DNA of 64,000 nucleotides from the NCBI GenBank assembly GCA_947366545.1, contig CANBAL010000001.1:122504-186503 (forward strand), in the 5' to 3' direction. The DNA is from an uncultured Clostridia bacterium (GTDB taxonomy: Bacteria; Bacillota; Clostridia; Christensenellales; UBA1242). The notes under the pieces were generated by a model. That model was not told the origin of the DNA. It did no database searches and saw nothing but the letters and a program-made list of their open reading frames with translations. Shown in pieces: positions 3,001 through 62,471 of this stretch (its first letter is position 1; each line of letters opens with the position of its first letter). The position numbers and the translations under genes are program-made.

Positions 3001-4421
3001 CTGCAGGCAACGGTGTTGAAGTTGAACTTTGGAACTATAGCGGTGCAAACATTACTGGCAAATTCTCTGTAATATACATTGGTAAAACTGATGATCGTGA
3101 TAGACCACTACTCGACCTTCTGACTTATGAAGATGTTTCAAGTACACCTAATATTGATCTTCACAATAACAATTTACAAATTCCTGTAAACAGCGAAGGT
3201 TTTACATTAAAGCTTAACTGGACAGACCACTTTGGTATAGATGAGAACAAGATTAATATCTATGTAGAAAAACTTTTCAACAATAGTTACATAAAGGTGG
3301 ATGTAAAAGTTTACTCTAATGGAACAACAAGATACACTACTCTTTCAAGAGCAGGCACATATAGAATAAGATTCTACGACTCCTGCACACCAAGCAATGA
3401 ACAATACTTTGGCAGCATAAACAACAACTACTTGAATTTAGTTTTACTAAACACAACCCCATTTACAGTATCTTACAAAGACCCTAACACTGGTGATACC
3501 CTTATAACAGAACCTAATACAAAGGCAGTATATAATGGTGAGGTTACACTAAGTCTTTCCAACCACTTCTCATACTTCCACCATGCACCAGATATCGAAG
3601 TGCATAAAGACGGAAATGAAGAGCCTTACACCGGCTACGACACCTCAACAAACAATTACACTTACACCTTTAAGGAAAATGGATATTATGTAGTTAAGTT
3701 TACAAATGCTGAAACAAAAGAAGGCGAGCCTATCGGCGAAGAAGAGTTTGTATTCACAATCATTAATCCAAATGAATCAAGATATGCTTACGAATTTTCA
3801 CCTTATTCAAATTACTATGTTCAAAAGGTTATGAAAAATGGTTTAGATATCACTGGGGCACTTGTTTCCCTTGCAAACAAGAACGATCTTGTTACAGTTG
3901 ATAGTAAACAGTATTTAACTAAACTTCTACTTTCTTACTTTGATGAAAGATCGGGTGCAGGAAGATACACAATAACTATTAATACTGGTGAGCAAATCTA
4001 CACTAACGCAATCTCAGAATTCACATTCTCACTCTGGATTAATCTTGCTACTCCTCCTGTCACCGTATCTATTGCAAATGGTGGCGCAACTACCGACAAC
4101 ATCTCATTAAGATTCAATGCTTATGACCTATATGATACTGTTGGTGATTGCTACATCCAAATTGGCAGTGATAGATATGACATAAATGCTGAAACCTTAT
4201 CTTCTATTGGTGGAGAAGGTGCTGGTATTACAATAACAAGAAATGGTACCTACTATATTCAGATTTACACCATGAGTGACACCTTACTTTACTCTTACAA
4301 AGTTACTAAAAATGAACCTCTCAACACTTGGGCAATCATTGCCATTGTCATCGGCGTGCTTGCTGTGGGCGTTGTAATCTTCATTACTATTAAACTTAGA
4401 AAGAGATTGAAAGTAAAATAA
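1..4421 (+). CDS. Very large repetitive cell-surface protein with a C-terminal TM anchor (5' end lies outside the window)
   Basis: The frame is open from nt 3 with no upstream stop, so the tracked GTG at 60 is not the true start. The protein is beta-rich and N/T/Y-rich, with a recurring Ig-like signature (aGxYxhxhYD, D.AGN). It ends in a hydrophobic helix (WAIIAIVIGVLAVGVVIFITI) followed by KLRKRLKVK. Confidence 0.8.
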   Translation, partial: LSYFGNAKIDHTDGDPYYYVIVEGVKHRFDTEEEANEYLAKTIIPEYELYAEIEFKATDASIPIHYKTNGTMTKGYLNFYEVTNLGDSISETSKPAVFTKAGNYEVKIYQAQNRGQAASFSNSYRFKFVISSPQPDFTVYNGNNLKANFVTDGDIDTYYVNTKKISIKWQDSDSRYIANLDRNKDKIKITIDGTTLKSEEFEVENDGLLAHHIDLNLEKYWKNGTELSITMQLEGHSENYGEDYSDLNNYGKVTKKVVIDYTAPLENLADLMSNVTNSYSSFTRTYQEINMRTLQDYNGDEIDTSGWDLNWNDETALNEKLQNVSYSYSKSSLPFKYYAYNVTTDFFSNLQAQITDKEHPPLPTDAKYIYYKEIGNMNEYLTNYTQTRNFSEYNYNSIEYLDTISSDTLYEIAERDVAGNTTIYIVHVYEPSKNTAISYKNSNETISIDNAELKDGFDIFSITGFELQELNYLSDPWGIYELNLYNHRPALYMKSPWSKLNSNEQDIDTTIYRLENSGGRINLVETDIKSIFTGMPSGERKHHVSLINRYLGTSIDLRISILNATYNDSNTRKDSTPTTATLELRVPTLEQATSADYAWLYPKEIRISQRIAASQSVWEEFGAFTNNTANPSLWTSNNSAISLNYANGYLVITINLAEYNVFKYEILDNFNQTSTIFQYLDEPDFDEITGTKNVYTTPSEADGSTTYLTSGDITYRYNSLIFDINIFDKDRKDITDTITKRTDPKTNITSITFRKGEQSELLYFIELSDLIEKKANSKINIRIYDKLPTFYDNNNATGSFIWFQDKNNNPISGKQSSRYETISIDGKFYSAQSMLLTTYSNSVTALFSASHSSYTDINYSYNNQYSYSIYFSNDNGNTWLNVNDFATNGFNFIGAGDYKFLVAYDDYSILNDACQIYSIKILDSSSVYYTVSLSDGELVEKARDTDGNLLKYTIYNDDNLPTETITENYIVSVDYGDHDSVNKTGSTELNIKLNLIRHYPAGNGVEVELWNYSGANITGKFSVIYIGKTDDRDRPLLDLLTYEDVSSTPNIDLHNNNLQIPVNSEGFTLKLNWTDHFGIDENKINIYVEKLFNNSYIKVDVKVYSNGTTRYTTLSRAGTYRIRFYDSCTPSNEQYFGSINNNYLNLVLLNTTPFTVSYKDPNTGDTLITEPNTKAVYNGEVTLSLSNHFSYFHHAPDIEVHKDGNEEPYTGYDTSTNNYTYTFKENGYYVVKFTNAETKEGEPIGEEEFVFTIINPNESRYAYEFSPYSNYYVQKVMKNGLDITGALVSLANKNDLVTVDSKQYLTKLLLSYFDERSGAGRYTITINTGEQIYTNAISEFTFSLWINLATPPVTVSIANGGATTDNISLRFNAYDLYDTVGDCYIQIGSDRYDINAETLSSIGGEGAGITITRNGTYYIQIYTMSDTLLYSYKVTKNEPLNTWAIIAIVIGVLAVGVVIFITIKLRKRLKVK

Positions 4422-4511: not shown

Positions 4512-5552
4512 ATGACAAAATTTTATTATGAGGGAAAAGGTTATATCGACATAAATCAAATTGTAAATTCAATTTCATCCGCCCCTTATAAAAGAAGTGC
4601 AGAGGAGAAAATAACCCCTGAAGATGAGGCCATTTATCGTGAGGCCATTAAGGGTTTGCCTCCACAAAGGATAACACAAAAATTTGCACAGAAAAGGCTG
4701 GATGCGTTGGAAAGAATTAATATTACAAAAGATAATTGTCAAGACAAAACAGCTGTTATTGCGGCAATTAAAAACGCATCAAGTGATGATATTTATTATA
4801 GTGGCCTTGAATTTCTCGTCCCTTCTTTAAGACTTGATGCTGAAGTCATGCTTAATGTTATATACAAATTTAAGTCTATCGAATATTTAAGATTAATCTG
4901 GAAAAAATTTGTTCCCGCAAAATTAAAACAAAATAAAGACTTTGTTCTTGCAGTAATAAAATACTGCCCTCAAATGTTTTCTGTTTTATATGCCACATGC
5001 TCAAGATTTGTAAAAGATAGCGATATTGCTATTGAAGCGATAACCAGAGAGCCCACACTTGCTAAATTTATTCCCCTCACGCTGCTTCAAAATGATGAAA
5101 TTTGTCTTAGATTAGTTTCAAAAAATGGACTTGCACTAGGAAAAATATATAATCAAAAAGAAGAAATTTTATTTGCAGCAGTGAAACAGAATGGCCATGC
5201 TTTAAGATATGTTGAAAGAGAAAATAAGATGAACCCCGCTCTTTTAATTGAAGCACTTAAAAGTAGAAAAGAGGCGTGGGAATTCGTACCAAATTCTTAC
5301 AAAGTTGACAAAGATTTTGCATTACTTGTTGTAGACAATATTGACTGCGAAATACTTCCCCTGATGAAATACACCTATACGAAAAACAAAATAGACATAA
5401 AGAAATGCTGGAATGACGACTTAGATGTAGGCCTGCACGCATTACTAAAAAGTAGCAGAGCATACAATTACCTAAGCAATGAACTCCAATCAAATCCTAA
5501 GATACTCACCGCTTATGAAAAAGCAAAGGCAAGAGAGGAAGAAAGTGAATAA
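4512..5552 (+). CDS. DUF4116-type repeat protein
   Basis: 346 aa with repeated ~30-aa units of the form ..A(V/I)K.NG.AL.Y(V/A)....K.D.E... typical of DUF4116. It has its own promoter and terminator. Confidence 0.65.
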   Translation: MTKFYYEGKGYIDINQIVNSISSAPYKRSAEEKITPEDEAIYREAIKGLPPQRITQKFAQKRLDALERINITKDNCQDKTAVIAAIKNASSDDIYYSGLEFLVPSLRLDAEVMLNVIYKFKSIEYLRLIWKKFVPAKLKQNKDFVLAVIKYCPQMFSVLYATCSRFVKDSDIAIEAITREPTLAKFIPLTLLQNDEICLRLVSKNGLALGKIYNQKEEILFAAVKQNGHALRYVERENKMNPALLIEALKSRKEAWEFVPNSYKVDKDFALLVVDNIDCEILPLMKYTYTKNKIDIKKCWNDDLDVGLHALLKSSRAYNYLSNELQSNPKILTAYEKAKAREEESE

Positions 5553-5587: not shown

Positions 5588-5614
5588 TTGACAAATCCCC
5601 CCCCCGAGTATAAT
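5588..5614 (+). promoter_or_regulatory. Promoter with a C9 homopolymer in the -35/-10 spacer
   Basis: TTGACA (5588-5593), AAT, C9 (5597-5605), GAG, TATAAT (5609-5614). The spacer is 15 nt. The TTG start in the ORF track is actually the -35 box. Confidence 0.6.
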
Positions 5615-58305: not shown

Positions 58306-58938
58306 ATGAAAAAGAAGGGAATTTTTATTACATTTGAAGGTGGAGAGGCTGTTGGAAAGACAACTCAAATTGCTTTGCTTCAAAATTATTTAGAGAAAAA
58401 GTTGCCAAACAAAGTGGTGTTTGTGCATGAGCCTGGCGGCACTACCCTTGGCGAAAAAATAAGAAACCTACTTTTGACCGATGAAAATGTAAAAATGTGT
58501 GGCAAGGCAGAACTTTTACTTTTTATGGCATCCCGTGTGGAATTATACGAAAAAGTAATTAAAAAGGCCTTAAAAGAAGGCAAAATCGTCATTGCCGACA
58601 GGTATTATGACTCCACTGTGGCTTACCAAGGCAGTGCAAGAAAGATTATGGATAAAGAGGAAATCCTTGCAATCAACAAATTCTTTTTGGATGGACTGAC
58701 GCCAGATTTAACAATCTACCTAAAAATGCCAGCAGAAAAAGCATTTCTAAGGAAAGGCAACGCAAGCCTTGATAAGATAGAACTAGAAGGTATGGATTTT
58801 CACCATGCAGTATCAAAAGGGTATGACTTTATGGCAAAAAAAGAGCCTGAGCGTTTCTTTACAATAGATGCCTCAAAATCCATAGAGGATATACACAACA
58901 TGATTGTAAATAAGGTGGATGAACTTATCAAAAAATAG
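58306..58938 (+). CDS. tmk: Thymidylate kinase
   Basis: I set the start at MKKKGIFITFEGGEAVGKTTQ (GGAGG SD). A DRY motif (IADRYYDS) is present. Confidence 0.92.
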   Translation: MKKKGIFITFEGGEAVGKTTQIALLQNYLEKKLPNKVVFVHEPGGTTLGEKIRNLLLTDENVKMCGKAELLLFMASRVELYEKVIKKALKEGKIVIADRYYDSTVAYQGSARKIMDKEEILAINKFFLDGLTPDLTIYLKMPAEKAFLRKGNASLDKIELEGMDFHHAVSKGYDFMAKKEPERFFTIDASKSIEDIHNMIVNKVDELIKK

Positions 58939-58977
58939 TCACAACATGTGACTATTTTTGTTTTCATAAACTTTTTC

Positions 58978-59014
58978 TTGACAAACTCCCCCCCCCACGC
59001 CGTATACTTATAAT
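58978..59014 (+). promoter_or_regulatory. Promoter with a C9 homopolymer between the -35 and -10 boxes
   Basis: TTGACA (58978-58983), AACT, C9 (58988-58996), ACGCCG, TATACT (59003-59008), with TATAAT at 59009-59014. The spacers are 19 and 25 nt. Confidence 0.55.
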
Positions 59015-59042: not shown

Positions 59043-59795
59043 ATGAAAAAAGTTTTTAAAAGTCTAGTAGTGGGAGCCCTTGCAATTCCATGTGCATTAC
59101 TTTGCACAGCCTGCGGCACTGATAATTCAGTAAAGGTAGACACAAGTGGAGATTGGAAACCAATTGATAAAACAAGTGCTTATACCGAAGTTTCAACCAT
59201 ACCAACTGAGAATTTAGACTTTGACGGGCTTAGGTTTACAATTAAACAAGAGATGGAAGGTCAAGGACAAAAAGCCACAATTACCATGAACGGAATGGCT
59301 TTATACAATGGACAAAACGTTGATTTTAAAATGGACATGACGGTGGCAGCATCCGGAAAAAGCGAAACCATGCATATGTATTTGAATGAAAACATTTTGT
59401 ACATAAATGCCATGAATCAAAAATACAAAGTTACTTTTGGAAGCAGTGATACTGATTTTGATCAATATATTGAAATGGTACCAGATGCAGAGTTTGTAAC
59501 AGGCGCAATAGAGCAAATGCAAAATGCCATTTTAGACAGTCAAAAGTCTGAGGTTGACGGTGTGACAAAATACTACTTCAAACTTGATGGCGATCAAATG
59601 GCAGAGGCAGCAGACATGACATTTGAGGAATGGATTGTATTAAAGGACGGCAAATTTGATAGTTTCAAAATAATTACAAGTGGTGTTATGCAAGGTTTCT
59701 CAACCAAGATTACTATGGACATGGAAAAATACACTGGCACTATTGATTTCCCAAGTTTTGACGGCTATGTTGATATGGGCTCTATGGTTGGTTAA
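59043..59795 (+). CDS. Putative secreted lipoprotein (250 aa)
   Basis: GGGAGGA SD. The signal peptide MKKVFKSLVVGALAIPCALLCTAC-G carries a lipobox-like TAC. Confidence 0.7.
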   Translation: MKKVFKSLVVGALAIPCALLCTACGTDNSVKVDTSGDWKPIDKTSAYTEVSTIPTENLDFDGLRFTIKQEMEGQGQKATITMNGMALYNGQNVDFKMDMTVAASGKSETMHMYLNENILYINAMNQKYKVTFGSSDTDFDQYIEMVPDAEFVTGAIEQMQNAILDSQKSEVDGVTKYYFKLDGDQMAEAADMTFEEWIVLKDGKFDSFKIITSGVMQGFSTKITMDMEKYTGTIDFPSFDGYVDMGSMVG

Positions 59796-59804
59796 AAATT
59801 AAAA

Positions 59805-59836
59805 ATAAAAAAGCATATCGTTTGATATGCTTTTTT
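59805..59836. terminator. Bidirectional terminator
   Basis: Stem AAGCATATC/GATATGCTT flanked by A and T runs, between convergent genes. Confidence 0.75.
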
Positions 59837-59843
59837 ATTTAAA

Positions 59844-62471
59844 TTATTTTCTTGGGTTTTTGATGTTTGCTTGTGCAGCTGCAAGGCGTGCAATTGGCAC
59901 TCTGTATGGGCTGCAAGAAACATAGGTAAGCCCTACATTATGGCAGAACTCAACAGAAGATGGGTCCCCGCCATGTTCGCCGCAAATACCGAGTTTGATA
60001 TCAGGTCTTGTCGCTCTTCCGAGGTCACAAGTCATTTTTACAAGTTTGCCAACGCCATTTTGATCAAGACGAGCAAATGGATCACTCTCAAAAAGTTTCT
60101 TAGCATAATAAACATCAAGGAATTTACCAGCATCGTCACGACTGAAACCATAGGTCATTTGGGTAAGATCGTTTGTACCGAATGAGAAGAACTCAGCGTA
60201 CTGTGCAATTTGGTCGGCAGTAACAGCAGCACGAGGAATCTCAATCATAGTTCCTATCTTATAGTGCATATCCACGCCCTTCTTTGCGATGATTTCATCA
60301 GCCTTATTAGCAACTATATCACGCACATATTTAAACTCTTTACTATCACAAGAAAGTGGAATCATGATTTCAGGAACGATTTCATAGCCCTCACTCTTGC
60401 TAACCTCTATAGCGGCCTCAATAACAGCCTGAGTTTGCATTTCAGCAATTTCTGGATAGGTAACAGCAAGTCTAAGTCCACGGTGTCCCATCATTGGGTT
60501 GAACTCATGAAGGTCAGCCACTGTTTGTTTAAGTCTATCAAATGTGATGCCCATCTCTTTTGCAAGCACTTTGATTTCAGCATCATCATGTGGTAGGAAT
60601 TCATGAAGTGGTGGGTCAAGAAAACGGATTGTTACGGCTTTGCCCTTCATTGCCTTGTAAATTCCTTTAAAGTCTTTCTTTTGCATTGGAAGGATTTTAG
60701 CGAGTGCTTTCTTTCTCTCTTCAACTGAAGTAGATACAATCATTTCACGCACTGCCATAATTCTATCAGCCTCAAAGAACATATGCTCTGTTCTGCAAAG
60801 ACCTACGCCCTCTGCACCAAAATCAAATGCTGTTTTAGCATCTCTTGGATTATCAGCGTTTGTACGCACTTGAAGTTTGCGGTACTTGTCAGCCCATTCC
60901 ATGATAGTTGCAAATTCACCAGAAATTTTTGCAGGCTCAGTTGCAATTTCGCCGTCATAGATTTTTCCAGTAGAGCCATCAAAGGAGATTACATCACCCT
61001 CTTTGTATTTCTTTCCATTAAGTGTGAAGGATTTTTCATCTTCTGCAAATTTAATTGCACTGCATCCTGCAACGCAGGCAGTACCCATACCTCTTGCTAC
61101 AACAGCAGCGTGAGAAGTCATACCACCTCTTGCAGTTAAGATACCTTGGCTCGCAGCCATACCTTCAATATCTTCAGGAGAAGTTTCAAGACGAACAAGT
61201 ACTACCTTACCTTTCTTTCCGCCTTGCTCTTTTGCTTTTTCAGCGGTAAATACAATTTTACCACAAGCAGCACCAGGAGATGCAGGAAGCGCCTCAGCAA
61301 TTACTTTTGCTTTCTTAAGCGCGGTTGCCTCAAATTGTGGGTGCAAAAGTGCATCAAGTTGTTTAGGGTCAAGCATCATAAGTGCTTCTTTCTCAGTGAT
61401 AAGTTTCTCGTTAACAAGGTCAACGGCAATTTTAAGAGCTGCTTTTGCAGTTCTCTTGCCATTTCTTGTTTGAAGCATATAGAGTTTGCCATTTTCGATA
61501 GTGAACTCCATATCTTGCATATCTTTGTTGTGACGCTCAAGTTTCTTTGCGATTTCCACAAACTGTTTGTAAACAGCAGGGTTTTGCTGCTCAAGAGTAG
61601 AAATAGCAAGTGGAGTTCTAATTCCAGCAACAACATCCTCTCCTTGTGCGTTCATAAGATATTCACCATAAAGTTTGTTTTCACCAGTAGATGGGTTTCT
61701 TGTGAAGGCAACGCCTGTACCACTTTCCTCACCCATGTTACCAAATACCATTGATTGAACATTTACAGCAGTACCCCAGTCATATGGAATGTCATGCATT
61801 CTTCTATAAACATTTGCTCTATCATTGTCCCAAGAACGGAATACGGCCTTAACTGCCTCAACAAGTTGAACCTTAGGCTCTTGAGGGAATTCCTCGCCTT
61901 GTGCTTTCTTGTAAAGGTCTTTGAAAAGCTTTACGATTTCCTTAAGGTCATCAGCAGTAAGATCTTTATCATATTGTACCTTTTTCTTTGTTTTGATTTG
62001 GTCTAAGATTTTTTCATATTTAGATTTTTCTTGTTGCATAACAACATCACTAAACATTTGAATAAAGCGTCTGTAAGAGTCATATGCAAAACGTGGATTA
62101 CCAGTAAGGCGAGCCAACCCCTCAACAACCTCGTCATTAAGTCCAAGGTTAAGGATTGTGTCCATCATACCAGGCATAGATACTCTTGCGCCAGAACGCA
62201 CTGAAACAAGAAGAGGATTCTCTACACTGCCAAATTGTTTGCCAGTAGTTTTTTCAAGCAATGCCAAGTTCTTGGTGATTTGCTCTAGTATTGCGTCATT
62301 GATTTTTCTTCCATCTTTATAGTACTGTGTACAAGCCTCAGTGGAAATAATAAAACCTTGTGGCACTGGAAGTCCGAGTTTGGTCATCTCAGCAAGATTT
62401 GCACCTTTTCCACCAAAGAGTGCCTTGTTTTTACCATCTGCTTCTTTAAATGAGTAAACAAATTTTTTCAT
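59844..62471 (-). CDS. ppdK: Pyruvate, phosphate dikinase
   Basis: 875 aa with GGKGANLAEM, the phospho-His loop GGMTSHAAVVARG and the C-terminal PEP/pyruvate domain (FFSFGTNDLTQ and YVSCSP). Confidence 0.96.
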   Translation of the reverse strand: MKKFVYSFKEADGKNKALFGGKGANLAEMTKLGLPVPQGFIISTEACTQYYKDGRKINDAILEQITKNLALLEKTTGKQFGSVENPLLVSVRSGARVSMPGMMDTILNLGLNDEVVEGLARLTGNPRFAYDSYRRFIQMFSDVVMQQEKSKYEKILDQIKTKKKVQYDKDLTADDLKEIVKLFKDLYKKAQGEEFPQEPKVQLVEAVKAVFRSWDNDRANVYRRMHDIPYDWGTAVNVQSMVFGNMGEESGTGVAFTRNPSTGENKLYGEYLMNAQGEDVVAGIRTPLAISTLEQQNPAVYKQFVEIAKKLERHNKDMQDMEFTIENGKLYMLQTRNGKRTAKAALKIAVDLVNEKLITEKEALMMLDPKQLDALLHPQFEATALKKAKVIAEALPASPGAACGKIVFTAEKAKEQGGKKGKVVLVRLETSPEDIEGMAASQGILTARGGMTSHAAVVARGMGTACVAGCSAIKFAEDEKSFTLNGKKYKEGDVISFDGSTGKIYDGEIATEPAKISGEFATIMEWADKYRKLQVRTNADNPRDAKTAFDFGAEGVGLCRTEHMFFEADRIMAVREMIVSTSVEERKKALAKILPMQKKDFKGIYKAMKGKAVTIRFLDPPLHEFLPHDDAEIKVLAKEMGITFDRLKQTVADLHEFNPMMGHRGLRLAVTYPEIAEMQTQAVIEAAIEVSKSEGYEIVPEIMIPLSCDSKEFKYVRDIVANKADEIIAKKGVDMHYKIGTMIEIPRAAVTADQIAQYAEFFSFGTNDLTQMTYGFSRDDAGKFLDVYYAKKLFESDPFARLDQNGVGKLVKMTCDLGRATRPDIKLGICGEHGGDPSSVEFCHNVGLTYVSCSPYRVPIARLAAAQANIKNPRK

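Follow-up and report, generated by a model that had tools for sequence, protein, structure and literature searches.

A C9 tract in the promoter spacer of a lipoprotein gene is a candidate slippage-prone dimmer in an uncultured gut Clostridia bacterium

Homopolymer phase variation is textbook biology for a few mucosal pathogens. In Bordetella pertussis, the length of C-stretches in the fim promoter determines transcription of an outer-surface protein gene. The vlp lipoprotein genes of Mycoplasma hyorhinis, studied by Yogev, Citti, Wise and colleagues, are reportedly each switched by a poly-A tract of 17–20 nt in the promoter spacer. Campylobacter jejuni lacks MutS/MutL mismatch repair and carries its runs mostly within genes. 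In Neisseria meningitidis, a G-run lies between the −35 and −10 boxes of porA, and expression is high with 11G, 2-fold lower with 10G and 13-fold lower with 9G (Tauseef et al. 2013, PMC3639595); the reference list of PMC5084427 gives van der Ende et al. 1995 for this poly-G promoter. For the poly-C promoter of N. meningitidis opc, tract length determines transcription (Sarkari et al. 1994, as cited in PMC5084427). The phasome of C. jejuni, whose genome is small, numbers about 29 G/C runs of 7 nt or more (PMC3401435; PMC4965091). Its modal G-run length is nine, with a bias to insertion at G8–9 and to deletion at G10–11 (Bayliss et al. 2012, PMC3401435), and this bias at G8–11 offers a mutational explanation for such a tight mode.

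Here, we analyzed a 64,000-nt stretch of DNA (the window) from an uncultured Clostridia bacterium with a genome of 950,806 bp (37% G+C, 97% complete). Positions 58978–59014 read TTGACA-AACT-C9-ACGCCG-TATACT-TATAAT, which confirms the layout described in a first-pass annotation, including spacers of 19 nt for TATACT and 25 nt for TATAAT. The C9 run lies between TTGACA and TATACT, both of which are invariant in orthologs, and its length sets the spacing of these putative promoter boxes. The downstream gene has orthologs on seven contigs from other samples (40–77% protein identity). The features of the locus, with their state in the orthologous contigs, are as follows.

58306-58938: tmk, the thymidylate kinase gene, upstream neighbour of the element
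58931..58959, + strand: intrinsic terminator of tmk, with a 13-pair stem and a T-run after it; L038 and L151 have an equivalent hairpin
58978..58983, + strand: predicted −35 box TTGACA; CTTGACAAA is invariant across the five orthologous promoters (alignment A1)
58984..58987, + strand: left linker AACT; AATT or AATA in orthologs
58988..58996, + strand: C9 homopolymer, presumed slippage-prone part of the spacer; also C9 in L038, L151 and L152
58997..59002, + strand: right linker ACGCCG; 6 nt of variable sequence in four orthologs, 3 nt (GAT) in L153
59003..59008, + strand: predicted −10 box TATACT, 19-bp spacer; invariant in 6/6 orthologous contigs that cover the box
59009..59014, + strand: second hexamer TATAAT, 25 nt from the −35 box, probably no −10 box; ATTTAT in L152, GGAAGT in L153
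59032..59037, + strand: ribosome-binding site GGGAGG, 5 nt 5′ of the ATG (59043); GGAGG is invariant in orthologs
59043..59795, + strand: 250-aa lipoprotein gene; lipobox CTAC followed by G, Cys24
59803..59840, both strands: bidirectional terminator, a 17-pair stem read on both strands
59844-62471, minus strand: ppdK, the pyruvate phosphate dikinase gene, convergent with the lipoprotein gene and sharing the terminator at 59803-59840

Judged from the sequence, the element heads a self-contained, monocistronic unit with predicted terminators on both sides. This arrangement supports a putative sigma-A-type promoter (housekeeping sigma) that would drive a single envelope-protein gene. A standard promoter scan accepts only 16–18-nt spacers and misses the C9 promoter because its spacer to TATACT is 19 nt. 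We considered a MerR-type long-spacer promoter and rejected it: the spacer AACTCCCCCCCCCACGCCG has no inverted repeat, and the neighbours are tmk and ppdK, with no regulator gene.

The window holds one further element of this kind.

5588..5614, + strand: sister poly-C promoter TTGACA-AAT-C9-GAG-TATAAT with a 15-bp spacer; its product is a 77-79-aa two-TM membrane protein

The two elements had been described as matching over the first 8–9 nt after the −35 box. The resemblance is approximate, with linkers of AAT and AACT. Two such elements are more than chance would supply: TTGACAAANT followed by C7, allowing one mismatch, occurs twice in the window and in none of 100 shuffles. Likeness to other loci extends over only ~20–25 nt (−35 box, linker and tract). 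We therefore rejected a mobile cassette as well as a longer dispersed repeat, the latter an outcome that the first-pass annotation had named as telling against its reading.

The full promoter is covered by the window and four contigs (L038, L151, L152 and L039), which were aligned with each other (alignment A1).

Window, this genome: TTGACA-N4-C9-N6-TATACT
L038, JGI: TTGACA-N4-C9-N6-TATACT
L151, ENA: TTGACA-N4-C9-N6-TATACT
L152, NCBI, 44% identity: TTGACA-N4-C9-N6-TATACT
L039, Logan: CCCCCTACC replaces C9, total length equal

Alignment A1 has no gap between the boxes, and the spacer is 19 bp in 5/5 promoters. We predict that TATACT is the −10 box, with a spacer of 19 bp, because it is kept in six orthologous contigs while the most distant full one (L152) loses TATAAT. 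The TATAAT at 59009, which had been proposed as an alternative −10 box, is lost in both L152 and L153 and was set aside. The four tract-bearing assemblies represent at least three lineages, with 44–77% protein identity to the window's product. Length polymorphism, on which the first-pass annotation had staked its reading, did not appear at this locus: the window, L038, L151 and L152 all have C9 and 19 bp, and the fifth ortholog combines CCCCCTACC with the same 19 bp. A more distant contig, L153 (40% identity), starts within the run and reads C8-GAT-TATACT, so its tract is at least C8. Contig L150 (Logan) starts directly after the promoter boxes. The breaks of L150 and L153 at the element are a weak hint of graph ambiguity there, which might stem from mixed tract lengths in the samples concerned or from low coverage of the run. 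Metagenome scans with a DNA pattern open to any tract length and with a protein alignment (A2) returned no match, although L038 comes from a JGI sample, and exact-protein look-ups for the window's lipoprotein and Tmk gave no further contigs of the same species.

These comparisons bear on whether the element could be an artefact of sequencing or assembly, or something other than a promoter, such as part of a dispersed repeat or an RNA element with no role in transcription initiation. Homopolymers can be mis-called in MAG assemblies, and two Logan contigs (L150 and L153) break at or inside the element. Against this, C9 is shared by independent JGI, ENA and NCBI assemblies made with different pipelines, the likeness to other loci is as short as described above, and no Rfam family was found at threshold, which also disposes of a known RNA family. 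Boxes, ribosome-binding site and flanking terminators together form a complete transcription unit, which argues against a non-promoter reading. We regard such an origin as exceedingly improbable.

Synonymous sites between the orthologs are saturated (dS 0.9–2.7), so retention of the run and of its spacing is not mere inertia. Pairwise dN/dS among the orthologs is 0.06–0.37, which places the lipoprotein gene under purifying selection. The L039 gene is informative here, since it shows purifying selection against its close orthologs (dN/dS 0.06–0.15) despite the non-slippery CCCCCTACC. A promoter locked at 19 bp ahead of a constrained gene means that 19 bp cannot simply be OFF, and at C9 with 19 bp the promoter probably works, though weakly. 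The same contig has kept the gene without C9, so the tract is dispensable in that lineage. Where the tract is present, its retention together with the off-optimum 19 bp over long divergence suggests selection for a weak, adjustable setting, not for an ON/OFF switch.

Two other readings draw on the same alignment. In the first, C9 in its T-C9-G context is a fixed cis-element whose function does not depend on length change, for example a site bound by a lineage-specific protein or a rigid spacer that keeps an otherwise perfect pair of boxes weak, and any regulation would be by a factor, not by mutation. The identity of C9 and 19 bp in four assemblies despite saturated synonymous sites fits this; the loss of the run in L039 with the gene kept does not. 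In the second, the run does mutate but has no function: a mutational process peculiar to the lineage would create and keep G/C runs, the promoter would be constitutive at a low level, and length variants would carry no adaptive role. The locked L039 promoter, with its kept spacing and constrained gene, and the orthologs without length difference agree with neutrality, whereas retention of the tract down to 40–44% protein identity speaks against it. Both readings make wider predictions about runs elsewhere in the genome, to which we return below.

The product itself begins with MKKVFKSLVVGALAIPCALLCTAC followed by G, a signal peptide that closes with a lipobox and its invariant Cys, and the earlier assignment as a lipoprotein with a signal peptide thus stands. 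Cys24 and the lipobox position are invariant among six aligned homologues, and the lipobox reads CTAC or FTGC. Pfam gave no family match for the 250-aa protein. Its family consists of eight proteins, the window's own included, among 5.8 billion sequences, and we class it as an orphan family. An AlphaFold2 model of modest quality (pLDDT 57.5, pTM 0.59) contains eleven strands plus helices, and the best Foldseek matches in the PDB are Mycobacterium tuberculosis LprG (E 4e-6, TM 0.40–0.50) and Porphyromonas gingivalis LolA3, with TM of 0.4–0.5. From this model we suggest, with low confidence, a surface lipoprotein that is possibly a LolA/LprG-like half-barrel lipid binder.

We then compared spacer lengths between promoters with and without a tract. 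Tract-less promoters, defined as TTGACA and TATAAT pairs that lack a C-run and have at most one mismatch in total, show a sharp maximum at 17 bp in this genome (111 promoters, compared with 32–35 at 16 or 18 bp and ~25 as background). Poly-C promoters of the same genome have spacers of 14 (2), 15 (5), 16 (1), 18 (2) and 19 bp (2), and none at 17. In other genomes, where part of the set was chosen by an AAT linker plus C9 with the distance to the −10 box left free, the mode is 16 (54), followed by 15 (38), with 6 promoters at 17 and a minor class at 19–20. The lipoprotein promoter, at 19 bp, belongs to the minority long-side class. Spacing off 17 would place the consensus state on a shoulder of the activity curve, the region most sensitive to a change of one base. 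The earlier suggestion that loss of C would optimise the spacer agrees with the 17-bp peak of the tract-less promoters, in that losing 2 C's fits TATACT. That the poly-C class avoids the 17-bp optimum is also in keeping with a fixed element. Compensation between linker and tract length, with longer linkers expected at C8 promoters, was considered and dropped, the weak trend in an unbiased sample being ~0.5 nt and too small to claim.

The C9 run is far from alone in this genome. G/C runs number 322 at 5 nt, 7 at 6 nt, 1 at 7 nt, 5 at 8 nt, 23 at 9 nt and 1 at 10 nt, a bimodal distribution with 29 runs of 8–10 nt (23 of exactly 9) and eight of 6–7 nt. C9 is within the length range of hypermutable G/C runs (about 8 nt or more). 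Promoter spacers between TTGACA-type and TATAAT-type boxes hold 12 C8–9 runs and ORFs hold 16, and 9/12 products downstream of the poly-C promoters have signal or TM segments. There is thus a genome-wide excess of long repeats placed at expression-critical sites. A thirteenth spacer run, shorter (C7), lies at G000 C1:28314. On the sense strand, every intragenic run is G and every promoter run is C; the G within genes is likely due to tolerance of GGG codons, where CCC, encoding Pro-Pro-Pro, would stall ribosomes.

A five-member family of 770–980-aa surface proteins carries G8, G9 or G10 directly after the signal peptide (…LLLTSN-GGG-ILEPDNSQEE…). Of the copies, the one on C8 is in frame; the remaining four are out of frame, and their ORFs are otherwise intact.

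G000 C8:24927-27869, − strand: surface family copy, in frame
G000 C4:3078-6064, + strand: surface family copy, out of frame
G000 C7:5919-8317, + strand: surface family copy, out of frame
G000 C2:11294-14201, + strand: surface family copy, out of frame
G000 C4:98355-98486, + strand: surface family copy, out of frame

Such a mixture of in-frame and out-of-frame copies is the classical signature of reversible frameshift switching, and the family looks like a one-on, many-off antigenic repertoire.

Other in-frame G9 runs encode Gly-Gly(-Gly) near enzyme N-termini (G000 C2:57763, C4:91440, C3:19494 and C2:51367). Going by N-terminal motifs alone, we take these four genes to encode a histidine phosphatase, an SDR, a Nudix hydrolase and an alpha/beta hydrolase. 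Housekeeping-type enzymes with G9 are not typical contingency genes. Contig C14 of G000 (8,280 bp) has three poly-C promoters within 4.5 kb (790-830, 4370-4410 and 5190-5230), two of them near-identical (CTCTTGACAAAT-C8-GCGTATAATAGAGGTATGGAGGAG) and ahead of genes for non-membrane proteins, and it may be a mobile element or plasmid fragment. Since the genome encodes MutS and MutL, we rejected the idea that hypermutability arose from lost mismatch repair. Promoter-like boxes at intragenic runs gave an inconsistent result as candidate antisense promoters, and the idea was dropped.

The genome-wide picture also bears on neutrality. Runs in housekeeping-type enzymes (histidine phosphatase, SDR, Nudix hydrolase), where switching is not obviously useful, speak for it. 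However, runs of 6–7 nt are almost absent while those of 8–10 nt are common, which argues for selection on long runs, and their placement is precise, either within promoter spacers or directly behind signal peptides and start codons. We consider a functionally neutral run quite unlikely.

The bases that flank the runs are not random. The 5′ base is T in 27/29 long runs of this genome, AA[A/C]T stands immediately 5′ of 19/29 long runs as against 2.1% of C4–5 runs, and the 3′ base is G in 23/29 as against 21% for C4–5 runs. Among 75 distinct C9 contexts from 14 relatives, 49/62 non-promoter C9 runs are followed by G. The flanks follow a T(A)-C9-G rule, and since it holds in all three reading frames, the rule acts at the DNA level.

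Together with the concentration of long runs at exactly 9 nt (23/29 here, and a mode of 9 in 14 relatives), these flanks lend support to the fixed cis-element set out above. Several observations weigh on the other side. Runs also occur in unrelated ORFs, in all three frames, and in frameshifted paralogs, which agrees with switching by mutation but not with a factor that binds promoters; homologous promoters also carry lengths of 8, 10 and 11; known mutational bias explains a mode of nine (PMC3401435); and no candidate binding protein was identified. On balance, a fixed element at this promoter, the main rival to slippage, seems to us rather unlikely. We also entertain, as a speculative and very doubtful variant, that T-C9-G elements are a length-stabilised class of cis-elements, through which a dozen envelope genes would be controlled by a factor or programmed process and not by random mutation alone. 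Their length of nine would then be maintained at the conserved flanks, either by a protein devoted to this task or by biased repair, and promoters would be placed 1–2 bp short of, or 2–3 bp beyond, the 17-bp optimum.

Long runs also occur in relatives of this bacterium, which are labelled uncultured Clostridia, Christensenella or Eubacteriales and come from rabbit, mouse and other guts. Counts in 14 relatives are 20 for C7, 38 for C8, 112 for C9 and 14 for C10, with the mode at 9 as in C. jejuni. Within the genus, TTGACA-N0-5-C8+ is found in 46/81 genomes, while a reversed control pattern gives 3 hits in 2 genomes; across a sample of the order, it is found in 14/201 genomes. Five of the 14 relatives (G005, G006, G007, G011 and G013) carry at most one G/C run of 8 nt or more. 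In L002 (G011:C3), which encodes a distant homologue of the lipoprotein (29% identity), the gene has an ordinary, tract-less TTGACA promoter with a 17–18-bp spacer. The run-poor genomes and this tract-less promoter indicate that the phasome is restricted to certain clades within the genus.

At another locus, the orthologous promoters of L014, L018 and L022 carry C9, C10 and C8T, respectively, and downstream they differ by 3 substitutions and no indels. Tract differences next to near-identical downstream sequence mean that an indel has occurred at a promoter tract. In L030 (G012:C2:15342-15361), TTGACA abuts C9-GAG-TATAAT with a 12-bp spacer; this spacing is far outside the workable sigma-A range, and the promoter resembles 15-bp versions in other genomes. 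Outside the phylum, TTGACAAAT-C9-N3-TATAAT with a 15-bp spacer also occurs in Mucispirillum/Deferribacterales MAGs (L044, L076, L077 and L109), and related layouts are found in a Helicobacteraceae MAG (L082 and L094). Shared layout and off-optimum spacing in an unrelated gut phylum suggest convergence.

Long G/C runs throughout the genome, the genus and its relatives bear out the proposal that the two elements of the window are a deliberate set and no chance pair. They support a slipped-strand contingency system at the level of the lineage, and we count the C9 run among the hypermutable G/C homopolymers, or phasome, that this lineage would share. For the promoter itself, the reading that we favour, with moderate confidence, is a slippage-prone dimmer of the porA type with C9 and 19 bp as its weak working state; both slippage at this locus and the setting of its transcription level by spacer length are inferred. 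Slipped-strand mispairing during replication would add or remove C, and so alter how far apart the −35 and −10 boxes lie and how they are rotated relative to each other. The promoter would work weakly at C9 (19 bp) and more strongly at C8 (18 bp) and C7 (17 bp), and C10 or longer would weaken or silence it. The tract would thereby act as a heritable and reversible dimmer of a surface lipoprotein, not as a clean ON/OFF switch. Mutational bias would keep the tract near 9, with cells of other lengths as minority variants. The uniform C9 of the four tract-bearing assemblies and the locked L039 promoter temper this reading, and two further points count against such a dimmer. Reaching 17 bp takes two deletions from C9, and deletions are the rarer event at G8–G9 in C. 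jejuni. In addition, MutS and MutL are present, unlike in Campylobacter, though Neisseria also has both.

If the dimmer reading and its lineage-wide setting are correct, a large group of gut Clostridia with 0.7–1.5-Mb genomes (at least 80 species-level genomes) would diversify its envelope through ~30 mutational switches per genome, and ~40% of the switches in this genome (12/29) would be promoter dimmers. This would bear on strain-level variation and on 'frameshifted' genes in MAGs, where gene callers will mis-annotate OFF copies, as well as on phage and immune evasion in commensals. Our literature search found no paper tying homopolymer phase variation to Christensenellales or Mucispirillum, and a broader search on gut MAGs gave pathogen work only.

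Among the described systems, porA shares a 9–11-nt G/C homopolymer in the sigma-70-type spacer of a surface-protein gene. While the common state of porA is the optimum and slippage lowers expression, the consensus state here is 2 bp over the optimum, and the host is an uncultured, Gram-positive-type gut commensal. The opc and fim promoters likewise have poly-C in the promoter region of an outer-surface protein gene, but their tracts are longer, at about 10–15 C, their hosts are proteobacterial pathogens, and in fim the run stands between an activator site and the −10 box instead of between the −35 and −10 boxes. M. hyorhinis vlp is alike in host and product, a small-genome bacterium of the Firmicutes lineage with surface lipoproteins and a homopolymer in the promoter spacer; there, poly-A makes up the whole spacer, whereas here C9 is set between fixed linkers. 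C. jejuni shares the number of runs and their modal length of nine with this genome. Its runs are mostly intragenic, however, whereas 12/29 runs here fall within promoter spacers, and this genome has MutS and MutL.
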